A stretch of 61,488 nt of DNA. Source: a virus (Duplodnaviria > Heunggongvirae > Uroviricota > Caudoviricetes). Positions 34,149 through 50,645 of this stretch are shown here, in pieces. The stretch lies in IMG/VR virus record IMGVR_UViG_2908567220_000003; one strand, given 5' to 3'. The position numbers and the translations under genes are program-made. Numbering within the stretch: the stretch's first letter is position 1; the number at the start of each line of letters is the position of its first letter. The notes below the pieces were generated by a model, which was not told the DNA's origin, made no database searches, and was given only the letters and a program-made list of their open reading frames with translations.

Positions 34149-34379
34149 AAAAATATCACCTATAAAAAAACCCGCCAAAAGACGGGTTGATTATATCTCA
34201 TTTAATTTAGCTCAGGGTTTCCATTCACCTTTTACCCATTCCAGCACCTCAGATAAGCGCCAGACTTTTGTTTGTGGGCCAATACATATTTTTCGTAACC
34301 GTCTCATTTAAACCGTCTTTCGCCTCCCTTTCCTGTTTCCGATACTAATGTCCATTTTCGCAGTAAAGGGACATTTAAG

Positions 34380-35030
34380 ATGAATGCACGAAAAGCGGTA
34401 CTGGCAGACAATCCGGAATTGATCCTGCGTGTGCTACAGCTGAGATTTGACGAGTCACTGTCGTACCCGCGCATTTCTGCGCAGACCGGTGTCAGCAAAA
34501 CCGCCATTTTTTCTCTGGTGAGGCGATTTCACCAGGTATTCACTGACTGGCCTCTTTCCGGTGAATATTCCTGCGGGCAACTGGCCCGGGCTCTTTTCCC
34601 GGGGCGATACCCTTCAGCCCCGACCGTGACTCAGCCTGTGAAAGCAGAGAAACCCCGCCGGAACCGATTTTCACCGGAGTTTAAATGGAGACTGGTTCAG
34701 CAAACTCTTTTACCCGGTGCCTGTGTCGCACAAATAGCTCGAGAGAATGGAATTAACGATAACCTGCTCTTTAACTGGCGGCATCTCTGGCGTAACGGTG
34801 GCCTGCAACCGCCCGGCGAACATGAAACATCGCTACTTCCCGTGACGTTAACTCCGGAGCCGGATAATAAAATCCCGGCACCAGTGCAGATACCTGAACA
34901 GATAAATACACTGCCAGACAGTCTGTGCTGCGAGCTGGTTCTGCCGGCCGGAACTCTCAGGCTGAAAGGTGAACTGACACCGGCGTTATTACAGACACTT
35001 ATCCGCGAAATGAAAGGGAGCAGCCACTGA
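34380..35030 (+). CDS. IS66-family accessory protein (orf1, HTH)
   Basis: 216-aa ORF, first of three in the IS. Confidence 0.7.
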   Translation: MNARKAVLADNPELILRVLQLRFDESLSYPRISAQTGVSKTAIFSLVRRFHQVFTDWPLSGEYSCGQLARALFPGRYPSAPTVTQPVKAEKPRRNRFSPEFKWRLVQQTLLPGACVAQIARENGINDNLLFNWRHLWRNGGLQPPGEHETSLLPVTLTPEPDNKIPAPVQIPEQINTLPDSLCCELVLPAGTLRLKGELTPALLQTLIREMKGSSH

Positions 35031-35377
35031 TGATATCTCTCCCTGCCGGTTCGCGTATCTGGCTGGTTGCCGGTATCACCGATATGCGAAATGGCTTTAA
35101 CGGCCTGGCCTCAAAAGTTCAGAACGTCCTGAAGGATGACCCGTTCTCCGGGCATCTGTTCATCTTCCGCGGACGCCGGGGTGACCAGATAAAAGTGCTG
35201 TGGGCTGACAGTGACGGACTGTGCCTCTTCACCAAACGCCTGGAGCGGGGCCGCTTCGTCTGGCCGGTCACCCGCGATGGAAAGGTTCACCTTACTCCGG
35301 CTCAGTTGTCCATGCTTCTCGAAGGCATCGACTGGAAGCACCCGAAACGAACGGAACGCGCTGGCATCCGCATATAA
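35030..35377 (+). CDS. tnpB: IS66-family TnpB (orf2)
   Basis: 115-aa ORF, ATGA overlap with orf1, typical IS66 orf2 size and sequence. Confidence 0.8.
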   Translation: MISLPAGSRIWLVAGITDMRNGFNGLASKVQNVLKDDPFSGHLFIFRGRRGDQIKVLWADSDGLCLFTKRLERGRFVWPVTRDGKVHLTPAQLSMLLEGIDWKHPKRTERAGIRI

Positions 35378-35396
35378 CCCGTTGTAAAGTGAGGAT

Positions 35397-36968
35397 ATGG
35401 ACACCTCACTTGCTCATGAGAATGCCCGCCTGCGGGCACTGTTGCAGACGCAACAGGACACCATCCGCCAGATGGCGAAATACAACCGCCTGCTCTCACA
35501 GCGGGTGGCGGCTTATGCTTCCGAAATCAACCGGCTGAAGGCGCTGGTTGCGAAACTGCAGCGCATGCAGTTCGGTAAAAGCTCAGAAAAACTTCGCGCT
35601 AAAACCGAACGGCAGATACAGGAAGCCCAGGAGCGAATCAGCGCACTTCAGGAAGAAATGGCGGAAACGCTGGATGAGCAATATGACCCGGTACTGCCAT
35701 CCGCCCTGCGCCAGTCTTCAGCCCGTAAGCCGTTACCGGCCTCACTTCCCCGTGAAACCCGGGTCATCCGGCCGGAAGAGGAATGCTGCCCGGCCTGTGG
35801 TGGTGACCTCAGTCCTCTGGGGTGTGATGTGTCAGAGCAACTGGAGCTTATCAGCAGCGCTTTTAAGGTTATCGAAACACAACGTCCGAAACTGGCCTGT
35901 TGCCGGTGCGACCATATCGTGCAGGCACCAGTACCTTCAAAACCCATTGCACGCAGTTATGCCGGAGCGGGGCTTCTGGCTCATATCGTCACCGGGAAGT
36001 ATGCAGACCATCTGCCGTTATACCGCCAGTCAGAAATATACCTTCGTCAGGGCGTGGAACTGAGCCGCGCCACGCTGGGGCGCTGGACCGGTGCCGTTGC
36101 TGAACTGCTGGAGCCGCTGTATGACGTGCTGCGCCAGTATGTGCTGATGCCCGGTAAAGTCCATGCGGATGATATCCCCGTTCCGGTCCAGGAGCCGGGC
36201 AGTGGTAAAACAAGAACTGCCCGGCTGTGGGTCTATGTCCGTGATGACCGTAACGCCGGTTCACAGATGCCCCCGGCGGTCTGGTTCGCGTACAGCCCGG
36301 ACCGGAAAGGTATCCATCCACAGAATCACCTGGCCGGTTACAGCGGTGTGCTTCAGGCAGATGCTTACGGTGGTTACCGGGCGTTATACGAATCCGGCAG
36401 AATAACGGAAGCCGCGTGTATGGCCCATGCCCGGAGAAAAATCCACGATGTGCATGCAAGAGTGCCAACCGACATCACCACGGAAGCCCTGCAGCGTATC
36501 GGTGAACTGTATGTCATCGAGGCAGAAGTCCGGGGATGTTCAGCAGAACAGCGTCTGGCAGCAAGAAAAGCCAGAGCGGCTCCACTGATGCAGTCACTGT
36601 ATGACTGGATACAGGAACAGATGAAAACACTGTCGCGTCACTCGGATACGGCAAAAGCGTTCGCATACCTGCTGAAACAGTGGGAGGCCCTGAACGTGTA
36701 CTGCAGTAATGGCTGGGTGGAAATCGACAACAACATCGCAGAGAACGCCTTACGGGGAGTGGCCGTAGGCCGGAAAAACTGGCTCTTCGCGGGTTCCGAC
36801 AGCGGTGGCGAACATGCGGCGGTGTTGTACTCGCTGATCGGCACATGCCGTCTGAACAATGTGGAACCAGAAAAATGGCTGCGTTACGTCATTGAGCATA
36901 TCCAGGATTGGCCGGCAAACCGGGTACGCGATCTGTTGCCCTGGAAAGTTGATCTGACCTCTCAGTAA
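35397..36968 (+). CDS. tnpC: IS66-family transposase (orf3)
   Basis: 523-aa ORF with leucine-zipper-like N-terminus and Cys-rich motif. Confidence 0.8.
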
Positions 36969-48425: not shown

Positions 48426-48772
48426 TGATATCTCTCCCTGCCGGTTCGCGTATCTGGCTGGTTGCCGGTATCACCGATATGCGAAATGGCTTTAACGGCC
48501 TGGCCTCAAAAGTTCAGAACGTCCTGAAGGATGACCCGTTCTCCGGGCATCTGTTCATCTTCCGCGGACGCCGGGGTGACCAGATAAAAGTGCTGTGGGC
48601 TGACAGTGACGGACTGTGCCTCTTCACCAAACGCCTGGAGCGGGGCCGCTTCGTCTGGCCGGTCACCCGCGATGGAAAGGTTCACCTTACTCCGGCTCAG
48701 TTGTCCATGCTTCTCGAAGGCATCGACTGGAAGCACCCGAAACGAACGGAACGCGCTGGCATCCGCATATAA
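48425..48772 (+). CDS. tnpB: IS66-family TnpB (orf2)
   Basis: same protein as 35030..35377. Confidence 0.8.
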   Translation: MISLPAGSRIWLVAGITDMRNGFNGLASKVQNVLKDDPFSGHLFIFRGRRGDQIKVLWADSDGLCLFTKRLERGRFVWPVTRDGKVHLTPAQLSMLLEGIDWKHPKRTERAGIRI

Positions 48773-48791
48773 CCCGTTGTAAAGTGAGGAT

Positions 48792-50363
48792 ATGGACACC
48801 TCACTTGCTCATGAGAATGCCCGCCTGCGGGCACTGTTGCAGACGCAACAGGACACCATCCGCCAGATGGCGAAATACAACCGCCTGCTCTCACAGCGGG
48901 TGGCGGCTTATGCTTCCGAAATCAACCGGCTGAAGGCGCTGGTTGCGAAACTGCAGCGCATGCAGTTCGGTAAAAGCTCAGAAAAACTTCGCGCTAAAAC
49001 CGAACGGCAGATACAGGAAGCCCAGGAGCGAATCAGCGCACTTCAGGAAGAAATGGCGGAAACGCTGGATGAGCAATATGACCCGGTACTGCCATCCGCC
49101 CTGCGCCAGTCTTCAGCCCGTAAGCCGTTACCGGCCTCACTTCCCCGTGAAACCCGGGTCATCCGGCCGGAAGAGGAATGCTGCCCGGCCTGTGGTGGTG
49201 ACCTCAGTCCTCTGGGGTGTGATGTGTCAGAGCAACTGGAGCTTATCAGCAGCGCTTTTAAGGTTATCGAAACACAACGTCCGAAACTGGCCTGTTGCCG
49301 GTGCGACCATATCGTGCAGGCACCAGTACCTTCAAAACCCATTGCACGCAGTTATGCCGGAGCGGGGCTTCTGGCTCATATCGTCACCGGGAAGTATGCA
49401 GACCATCTGCCGTTATACCGCCAGTCAGAAATATACCTTCGTCAGGGCGTGGAACTGAGCCGCGCCACGCTGGGGCGCTGGACCGGTGCCGTTGCTGAAC
49501 TGCTGGAGCCGCTGTATGACGTGCTGCGCCAGTATGTGCTGATGCCCGGTAAAGTCCATGCGGATGATATCCCCGTTCCGGTCCAGGAGCCGGGCAGTGG
49601 TAAAACAAGAACTGCCCGGCTGTGGGTCTATGTCCGTGATGACCGTAACGCCGGTTCACAGATGCCCCCGGCGGTCTGGTTCGCGTACAGCCCGGACCGG
49701 AAAGGTATCCATCCACAGAATCACCTGGCCGGTTACAGCGGTGTGCTTCAGGCAGATGCTTACGGTGGTTACCGGGCGTTATACGAATCCGGCAGAATAA
49801 CGGAAGCCGCGTGTATGGCCCATGCCCGGAGAAAAATCCACGATGTGCATGCAAGAGTGCCAACCGACATCACCACGGAAGCCCTGCAGCGTATCGGTGA
49901 ACTGTATGTCATCGAGGCAGAAGTCCGGGGATGTTCAGCAGAACAGCGTCTGGCAGCAAGAAAAGCCAGAGCGGCTCCACTGATGCAGTCACTGTATGAC
50001 TGGATACAGGAACAGATGAAAACACTGTCGCGTCACTCGGATACGGCAAAAGCGTTCGCATACCTGCTGAAACAGTGGGAGGCCCTGAACGTGTACTGCA
50101 GTAATGGCTGGGTGGAAATCGACAACAACATCGCAGAGAACGCCTTACGGGGAGTGGCCGTAGGCCGGAAAAACTGGCTCTTCGCGGGTTCCGACAGCGG
50201 TGGCGAACATGCGGCGGTGTTGTACTCGCTGATCGGCACATGCCGTCTGAACAATGTGGAACCAGAAAAATGGCTGCGTTACGTCATTGAGCATATCCAG
50301 GATTGGCCGGCAAACCGGGTACGCGATCTGTTGCCCTGGAAAGTTGATCTGACCTCTCAGTAA
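48792..50363 (+). CDS. tnpC: IS66-family transposase (orf3)
   Basis: same protein as 35397..36968. Confidence 0.8.
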
Positions 50364-50366
50364 ATA

Positions 50367-50645
50367 TCAATACGGTTCTGGCGAGCCGCTTACGAAAGTG
50401 CGGGACGGACGTGGTGGGCGTTCGGAATAAGGCAGCCTGACAGAGATTATCCAGTGCCGATAGTCGAGACTGAGAGCTTTCTTAACCTCGAACCCGCGCC
50501 TGCGGTAAGAATGAATCAGCCATTCGGCCTGTTCTTCAGTACATGGTGGGTGTTGGTACCAGTCGGTTTTAAATGCGTGTGAACGCCGCCCATGCCGGAT
50601 GGCAAGGTCGGTATCAGAATTGTGAAATTTGGTTTTGTGCGCCAT
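50367..50645 (-). CDS. hypothetical protein with C-terminus replaced by IS66 read-through
   Basis: ATG at 50645; IS inserted at codon 82; without the IS the frame would end FQQRIWR-stop at 47663. Confidence 0.4.
   Translation of the reverse strand: MAHKTKFHNSDTDLAIRHGRRSHAFKTDWYQHPPCTEEQAEWLIHSYRRRGFEVKKALSLDYRHWIISVRLPYSERPPRPSRTFVSGSPEPY

Follow-up and report, generated by a model that had tools for sequence, protein, structure and literature searches.

Two copies of one IS66-family insertion sequence (IS) lie within a lambdoid prophage and a satellite nested inside it, which raises the question of whether they arrived as a unit or separately, and of what they did to the two elements that received them. 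The window, the whole stretch of DNA that was analyzed, is 61,488 nt long (Caudoviricetes record IMGVR_UViG_2908567220_000003), and all coordinates refer to it at full length.

Identity of the IS pair and number of insertion events

The two copies and their parts are the following.

34295..36998, + strand: IS66-family insertion sequence copy 1, 2,704 bp, interrupting the AlpA-family gene next to int in the embedded satellite
47690..50393, + strand: IS66-family insertion sequence copy 2, 2,704 bp, at a small gene's 3' end, a short distance upstream of DUF968-rusA-Q
34295..34316, + strand: left terminal inverted repeat, GTAACCGTCTCATTTAAACCGT; same sequence in copy 2 at 47690-47711
36977..36998, - strand: right terminal inverted repeat, GTAAGCGGCTCGCCAGAACCGT on the - strand; same sequence in copy 2 at 50372-50393
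34380..35030 (copy 2, 47775-48425), + strand: tnpA, 216 aa (NCBIfam IS66_access_TnpA, 6e-85; Pfam HTH_Tnp_1)
35030..35377 (copy 2, 48425-48772), + strand: tnpB, 115 aa (Pfam TnpB_IS66, 3e-40; NCBIfam IS66_TnpB, 5e-38)
35397..36968 (copy 2, 48792-50363), + strand: tnpC, DDE transposase, 523 aa (Pfam DDE_Tnp_IS66, 9.5e-104; NCBIfam transpos_IS66, 8e-143)
34287..34294, no strand: left target-site duplication of copy 1, TATTTTTC
36999..37006, no strand: right target-site duplication of copy 1, TATTTTTC
47682..47689, no strand: left target-site duplication of copy 2, GAAAGTGC
50394..50401, no strand: right target-site duplication of copy 2, GAAAGTGC

An earlier note on this DNA had described the copies as identical, in direct orientation and 13.4 kb apart. 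Direct comparison of 34295-36998 with 47690-50393 bore this out at every one of the 2,704 bases (no mismatches), with a start-to-start distance of 13,395 bases and 10,691 bases in between. Identity stops almost exactly at the IS ends, extending by one base leftward, because both duplications end in C, and by none rightward. The window contains no long repeat family besides this direct pair, and chance cannot account for an exact repeat of 2.7 kb.

IS66-family elements have imperfect terminal inverted repeats of approximately 20-30 bp that start with GTAA(G)CG, a description that the terminal repeats of both copies fit. The termini read GTAA...TTAC (GTAACCGTCTC... at the left end and GTAAGCGGCTC... 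at the right), and the left end and the reverse-complemented right end agree at 17 of 22 positions, the repeats thus being imperfect. The genes tnpA and tnpB overlap by one base, tnpC begins at 35397, and its product also matches Pfam zf-IS66, LZ_Tnp_IS66 and DDE_Tnp_IS66_C. Together, the IS66-type TnpC, the upstream tnpA and tnpB, the 8-bp target duplication and the terminal repeats place the element in the IS66 family.

Judged from sequence, the element is related to ISCro1 and to E. coli IS66-family elements such as IS679 (NCBI PGAP/ISfinder naming). It shares with ISCro1-type elements the tnpA-tnpB-tnpC layout, the 8-bp duplication and the GTAA...TTAC ends, and PGAP gives the name 'IS66-like element ISCro1 family transposase' to a protein sharing 97% identity with its TnpC. 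Nonetheless, comparison with a PGAP-labelled ISCro1-family copy speaks against identity with ISCro1 itself, since nucleotide identity was 94.2% over positions 419-2704, whereas the left 418 nt (left terminal repeat and start of tnpA) could not be aligned and TnpA was only 59% identical. The length also differs, at 2,704 bp here compared with 2,824 bp for the ISCro1 copy in strain EC958 (PMC8764528). In strain NCCP 13717, a prophage of the same type as the one here carries a related ISCro1-family copy that interrupts its lysozyme gene.

Many E. coli of swine and bovine origin carry sequence 100% identical to the 2,704-bp IS, on plasmids as well as chromosomes, with as many as 10 such places in a single one of the records listed, and RefSeq names these copies only 'IS66 family transposase'. 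Perfect matches at so many different sites elsewhere, together with the two fresh insertions here, indirectly suggest an active element. When species-representative genomes were scanned for the left IS end, the sole match was a 3,095-bp contig labelled Thauera sp. 2A1 (99.5% identical, 1.68x coverage), which is a probable contamination and says nothing on host range.

The number of events was read from the target duplications and from related genomes that lack the IS. On re-inspection, the flanking 8-bp repeats matched perfectly at each copy, and since each copy has its own duplication, two separate insertion events took place. The empty site of copy 1 is intact in E. coli 042, where the octamer is present once; removing copy 1 and one duplication from the window restores 800 bp that are 100% identical to that genome. 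Likewise, the empty site of copy 2 is intact in strain EC32 (locus L003, 15163-15170), with the octamer again present once, and removal of copy 2 restores the EC32 sequence, with flanks 98.7-99.6% identical. The claim of two independent insertions, with distinct duplications, is thus upheld by an empty site for each copy in a related genome (E. coli 042 and EC32, respectively), and we consider it very probable that one IS66-family element transposed twice, by separate simple transpositions, into the nested prophage and satellite.

Identical, directly oriented IS copies that bracket a gene-rich segment would also be the expected form of a composite transposon, in which both copies and the 10.7 kb between them arrived as one unit. 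However, the octamer outside copy 1 on the left (TATTTTTC) is not the one outside copy 2 on the right (GAAAGTGC), and matching octamers instead flank each copy individually. The segment is in native prophage and satellite order and collinear with genomes lacking both IS copies, and each uninterrupted empty site was found separately in a related genome. All of this argues for two simple insertions and leaves the composite transposon a practically negligible probability. A single insertion followed by duplication was rejected on the target-duplication pattern and the collinearity with IS-free relatives. An assembly artefact, with one copy misplaced or the identity produced by collapsed or consensus-polished repeats, has to be weighed as well, given that 2.7-kb repeats exceed short reads and that the IS is multi-copy in related strains, the setting in which repeat consensus effects occur. 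Yet a misjoin would not give clean junctions, perfect 8-bp duplications and exactly restored empty sites, and recent activity of an IS would be expected to yield identical copies, so that an artefact appears highly unlikely; the perfection of the identity could in part come from consensus polishing of repeats at assembly.

Copy 1 and the satellite embedded in terL

The host of both insertions is a lambdoid, HK97-type prophage of E. coli type that reads on the minus strand, as do all key genes. Its terL gene is interrupted by the satellite that carries copy 1, and the features needed here are the following.

20575..38518, - strand: helper-embedded capsid-forming PICI-type satellite inside prophage terL, 15.2 kb without the IS, carrying copy 1
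36972..37145, - strand: 5' portion of the AlpA-family gene that copy 1 interrupts, encoding residues 1-49 of 73 and then eight IS-encoded residues (VSGSPEPY) and a stop
34212..34294, - strand: 3' remnant of the same gene, orphaned by the IS (its final 24 codons and stop), located by mapping the E. coli 042 gene
33870..34178, - strand: second AlpA-family gene, intact, to the left of copy 1 (Pfam Phage_AlpA, 7e-10)

The terL gene is split at about codon 347, into an N-terminal part at 38518-39546 and a C-terminal part with its end at 20574. The satellite is missing from EC32, whose terL is whole, and the junctions show a 14-bp overlap. The window is collinear with the prophage and satellite of E. 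coli 042; the satellite region is 98.6% identical to the corresponding 042 region, from whose annotation its gene content was taken. The satellite integrase matches Pfam Phage_integrase and Arm-DNA-bind_3, Phage_AlpA was found twice, and the E. coli 042 annotation gives a DUF927 primase-type gene and no tail genes.

[quoted passage not shown] As in published HE-PICIs, the satellite occupies a late gene of a lambdoid prophage in co-orientation (PMC10111431), and its gene order is int-AlpA, Bro-N zone, primase and captured late genes, with the BRO-N gene at 33234-33812. The gene used here, terL, is cognate to gene A of lambda, and A:Terminase_1:245 is among the site names listed in that work (PMC10111431). 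Similarly, the satellite resembles capsid-forming PICIs (cf-PICIs) in the proteobacterial order of int, alpA, replication genes, capsid-protease-portal-connector and hnh-terS-terL, with no tail genes. Its 15.2 kb without the IS compare with 15.4 kb for the prototype EcCIEDL933 (bioRxiv 10.1101/2022.09.08.507074).

The earlier note had placed copy 1 between int and alpA. Instead, the IS has entered an AlpA-family gene (73 aa) at codons 47-49 and truncates it after residue 49. This gene and the end of int overlap; the previous placement would hold only if the intact gene at 33870-34178 were the sole alpA. The counterpart in E. coli 042 (EC042_RS11560; locus L001, 9212-9433) is intact and annotated as a 73-aa HTH gene, and Pfam Phage_AlpA recognizes the 73-aa protein rebuilt without the IS (1.7e-9). 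Copy 1 deprives the AlpA domain of its C-terminal third, at profile positions of roughly 34-51. A neutral, intergenic insertion between int and alpA that left the satellite unaffected would agree with the intact AlpA-family gene to the left of the IS, but such a reading is very unlikely in light of the position within a Phage_AlpA gene that is intact in E. coli 042 and of the lost domain third.

The genes int, alpA and pri have been stated to be essential for PICIs (PMC10111431), and mutation of alpA abolished induction and transfer of a cf-PICI (bioRxiv 10.1101/2022.09.08.507074). Because published work makes Gram-negative PICIs dependent on alpA for their induction and transfer, copy 1 most likely blocks the satellite, which, with its AlpA-family gene broken, would no longer be able to induce or excise. 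A satellite that cannot excise would leave the prophage terL split, at about codon 347 of 585, and we infer that the satellite is most likely locked in place in this way. Unlike in the published HE-PICI, where late-gene rejoining is regulated (PMC10111431), the AlpA-family gene here is broken by an IS and that rejoining is probably lost. The intact second AlpA-family gene (33870-34178) might substitute for the broken one, and the truncated protein, with 49 residues kept, could retain some activity.

Copy 2 upstream of DUF968-rusA-Q

Copy 2 lies in the prophage itself, where it affects two genes read on the minus strand.

50367..50645, - strand: small gene (interrupted), last six codons (QQRIWR) replaced by the IS-encoded tail VSGSPEPY, compared with the EC32 and 042 orthologues
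46601..47659, - strand: DUF968 gene (Pfam DUF968, 3e-63)

Both effects that the earlier note had ascribed to this insertion, namely replacement of the last codons of the small gene and separation of the DUF968 gene from its upstream sequence, were found. The small gene encoded 90 aa before the insertion, of which six codons are gone. The IS lies only 30 bp upstream of the GTG start of the DUF968 gene, which retains this start and a Shine-Dalgarno sequence on its own side of the insertion, and is cut off from upstream transcription and translational coupling. As a result of the insertion, 2.7 kb of antisense IS now stand ahead of DUF968-rusA-Q. No sigma-70-like promoter was predicted out of the left IS end toward DUF968, and terminator-like sites within the IS were in no excess over shuffled sequence. 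Copy 2 would probably have a polar effect on the transcript reaching the late-gene antiterminator Q, encoded at 45402-46223, and late-gene activation is thus probably impaired, while antiterminated phage transcripts might read through the IS.

Deletion potential and decay of the nested elements

Direct IS repeats are capable of mediating deletion. In the window, RecA-dependent recombination between the copies could delete 13,395 bp, and the product would keep a single IS between TATTTTTC (left) and GAAAGTGC (right). The intervening genes had been listed as int, terL-N, terS, HNH, bor, lysis, Q and rusA, a list that collinearity with annotated EC32 shows to be correct; the segment has also been described as int, terL-N, terS, HNH, iss, lysis genes, Q and rusA. 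The suggestion that the 2.7-kb repeats could mediate this deletion is sound in principle but gained no support here, as no deletion product was present in the collections searched.

The four IS junctions and the deletion product were absent from 5,426 complete E. coli genomes, and no complete E. coli genome record covers all of the full 24.9-kb region. With a composite query mimicking the deletion product, no record had either flank contiguous to the IS; the single match at more than 80% coverage, strain JP538, consisted of three non-contiguous pieces joined across 4.8 kb. Neither copy 1's right junction nor copy 2's left junction was matched at query coverage of at least 80%, and the exact junction strings were absent from GTDB representative genomes and metagenome contigs. 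Both insertion sites are private to one strain. Strain U90 has an IS copy (ends 99.8% and 100% identical to the queries) that adjoins a DUF4222 gene, a gene type also present in the satellite of E. coli 042.

Together, the two insertions would freeze prophage and satellite in the chromosome, and on the evidence of the genes affected the pair is probably defective. Events of this sort are known and amount to ordinary mobile-element decay. They are the same in kind as the prophage decay and flanked deletions that IS copies generally cause in E. coli, with IS copies in regulatory and late genes, and only the exact sites are private here. That the insertions are a selected 'lock' fixing the cf-PICI and the iss-carrying prophage, or that the IS pair mobilizes an int-terS-HNH-iss-lysis-Q module, we regard as extremely unlikely; the positions of the insertions are the one observation behind these ideas.

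Although the importance of the finding beyond annotation is slight, the region, as a likely defective pair, should not be counted as an inducible prophage or a mobile satellite, and the two 2.7-kb direct repeats are a predictable spot of assembly ambiguity. A 13.4-kb deletion through the repeats could remove iss, the lysis cassette and Q. More broadly, the locus is one more piece of evidence that prophages and satellites are frequent targets of this IS66 variant, which abounds in E. coli from livestock.

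An exact repeat of an ISCro1-related element

Two stretches of the window, 34295-36998 (copy 1) and 47690-50393 (copy 2), had been described in an earlier note as identical IS66-family insertion sequences lying 13.4 kb apart in direct orientation. Each comprises 2,704 bases, and direct comparison found no differing position, in keeping with that description. The identity ends at these borders, except for one additional base leftward, the two target duplications having a final C in common. A repeat search of the whole window confirmed the direct orientation, with 13,395 bases from start to start and 10,691 bases separating the copies, and found no further long repeats. 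Each copy encodes three genes on the plus strand, as follows.

Genes carried by each copy of the element
tnpA, plus strand, 216 aa: NCBIfam IS66_access_TnpA (6e-85)
tnpB, plus strand, 115 aa: Pfam TnpB_IS66 (3e-40)
tnpC, plus strand, 523 aa: Pfam DDE_Tnp_IS66 (1e-103) and NCBIfam transpos_IS66 (8e-143)

TnpC also matches the IS66 zinc-finger, leucine-zipper and C-terminal modules, and the termini form imperfect inverted repeats (GTAACCGTCTC... and GTAAGCGGCTC...) that agree at 17 of 22 positions. Together with the 8-bp duplication, these give the element every IS66 structural hallmark that a sequence can show. Full-length matches at 100% identity are present in chromosomal and plasmid records of many Escherichia coli from swine and cattle, in up to 10 places per record among the records listed. 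The element is therefore already known and widespread, and appears to be active.

Its assignment to a named element is uncertain. Although TnpC shares 97% identity with a protein designated "ISCro1 family" by PGAP, TnpA is just 59% identical to that of the same PGAP-labelled copy; similarly, the nucleotide match to the ISCro1-family copy is 94% outside the left ~418 nt (34295-34712), whereas that stretch, with the left terminal repeat and the beginning of tnpA, shows no relationship at megablast level. As an ISCro1 copy from strain EC958 also differs in length (2,824 bp; PMC8764528), we call this an ISCro1-related IS66-family element. The unrelated left end suggests a mosaic of two IS66-family lineages. 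A 3,095-bp contig assigned to the betaproteobacterium "Thauera sp. 2A1" (NZ_SSXV01000059.1) consists almost entirely of the element at 99.5% identity; given its short length and low coverage (1.68x), this looks like enterobacterial contamination rather than genuine host range.

Independent insertions in a prophage and its embedded satellite

Apart from both IS copies and a small segment containing iss/bor, the window aligns collinearly with E. coli 042 (NC_017626, about 2.22-2.267 Mb), its main aligned blocks being about 98-99% identical; divergence is greater at the tail-fibre end and in the early region. Identity to strain EC32 (NZ_CP085619) is 99.3-99.6%; the prophage of that strain is a plain lambdoid one of the HK97 type, and its terL (585 aa) is intact. 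Within terL, at about codon 347, the window and 042 share an extra segment (20575-38518) with a 14-bp overlap at its junctions (junction octets near 20561-20574 and 38519-38532). This satellite is 15.2 kb without the IS, is co-stranded with the phage late genes and has no tail genes.

Gene content of the satellite
First block: integrase, two AlpA-family proteins, BRO-N and an Icd-like protein
Next block: DUF4222, a DUF927 primase-type protein, SSB and PerC
Head block: major capsid protein, prohead protease, portal and head-tail connector
Last block: HNH, terS and a complete terL

[quoted passage not shown] The same arrangement is found in 042 and many other complete genomes; it is of interest, yet already described.

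Several other features of the region were observed. An open reading frame of 807 codons (37123-39546, minus strand) leads in frame from the opening ~347 codons of the prophage terL, across a ~55-codon linker, into the satellite integrase, whose own start is likely MALNKLSDKKL, and translation of the late operon might yield a TerL-N::Int fusion. This continuity is also seen in 042, which is nearly identical and hence not independent evidence. Between the prophage HNH and lysis genes lies an iss/bor-type serum-survival lipoprotein gene (41052-41345, plus strand), present in EC32 and missing from 042, where about 870 bp are absent. Two tRNA genes (45008-45082 and 45183-45258, minus strand) lie downstream of Q and before the lysis genes, as is typical of lambdoid prophages; one is tRNA-Arg (TCT), and the other has a CAT anticodon, read as Met by ARAGORN and as Ile by RefSeq in orthologous prophages.

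Copy 1 is flanked on both sides by the 8-bp duplication TATTTTTC and copy 2 by GAAAGTGC, so the repeats reported earlier hold on re-inspection. Removing copy 1 and one duplication gives 800 bp at 100% identity to the uninterrupted 042 stretch, and removing copy 2 restores the EC32 sequence, with a single octamer (15163-15170 of that locus). Because each copy has its own duplication, each target is uninterrupted in a relative and the order between the copies is native, these are two independent simple insertions, as the earlier note had proposed. A composite transposon that arrived as one unit is excluded on the same three grounds. Recombination between the copies since insertion is likewise excluded, as it would have left mismatched flanks, yet those of each copy match.

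The interrupted genes

That core reading holds apart from the placement of copy 1, which had been put between int and alpA. This is incorrect, since the junction lies within a 73-aa helix-turn-helix gene of 042 (EC042_RS11560) that overlaps the end of int and whose reconstructed product belongs to the Phage_AlpA family (1.7e-9). The misplacement is the functionally important point in that account; the gene taken for alpA was probably the intact one at 33870-34178. The satellite carries AlpA-family genes in tandem (102 and 73 aa), and the break is confined to the one next to int.

AlpA-family genes of the satellite
33870-34178: second AlpA-family gene, intact, 102 aa as an open reading frame (042 orthologue annotated as 92 aa)
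34212-34294 with 36999-37145: int-proximal AlpA-family gene, 73 aa, broken by copy 1

The 73-aa protein is cut after residue 49, with VSGSPEPY from the IS right end standing in place of the final 24 residues. Copy 2 was rightly said to replace the last codons of a small gene and to separate DUF968 from its upstream sequence: a 90-aa gene loses six codons (QQRIWR) and gains the IS-encoded VSGSPEPY, with the IS now between the two genes. Both interrupted genes read the IS right end (minus strand, 36972-36998 and 50367-50393) in the same frame and therefore share this tail and its stop, probably a coincidence with a chance of roughly 1 in 3. In the uninterrupted arrangement, the stop codon of the 90-aa gene is one base from the GTG start of DUF968, whose Shine-Dalgarno sequence lies within the 3' end of the 90-aa gene; after insertion, Shine-Dalgarno sequence and start remain with DUF968, 30 bp left of copy 2.

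Deletion potential and probable decay of the pair

Recombination between the direct copies would delete 13,395 bp, from the 5' part of alpA through int, the attL junction, terL-N, terS, HNH, iss/bor, Rz/Rz1, lysozyme, ydfR, holin, iraM, the pair of tRNA genes, Q and rusA to DUF968. A single IS would remain, flanked by TATTTTTC at its left end and by GAAAGTGC at its right end. This deletion is a prediction only; a composite query mimicking its product found no such sequence in 5,426 complete E. coli genomes. All four IS junctions were absent from the same genomes, the copy 1 left and copy 2 right junction strings from metagenome contigs, and the copy 1 left string also from species-representative genomes; among the collections searched, both insertions are consequently private to the source strain.

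Gram-negative PICIs require int, alpA and pri to be induced and transferred (PMC10111431), and mutation of alpA in the prototype cf-PICI abolished helper induction and transfer (bioRxiv 10.1101/2022.09.08.507074). Copy 1 removes the C-terminal third of the AlpA domain and, based on this published dependence, the satellite is probably unable to induce or excise, although its other AlpA-family gene might take over. Were the satellite fixed in place, the prophage terL could not be rejoined. Copy 2, antisense to phage transcription, inserts 2.7 kb ahead of DUF968-rusA-Q and separates these genes from the early transcript. Expression of Q is likely reduced, since promoter prediction on the IS found none directed out of its left end toward DUF968.

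IS66-family copies hit the same kind of target elsewhere. In E. coli NCCP 13717, an ISCro1-family copy (5041-7740 of the locus) interrupts lysozyme in a prophage of this type, likewise lying antisense. In swine strain U90 (NZ_CP068035, around 3,867,374-3,870,084), a copy matching the queried IS ends at 99.8% and 100% lies next to a DUF4222 gene; this gene type is also present in the 042 satellite. As these sites differ, there is no single hotspot. The IS element, the type of event and the helper-embedded cf-PICI are all already known, and the two insertions look like an ordinary case of a prophage and its satellite decaying through IS activity.
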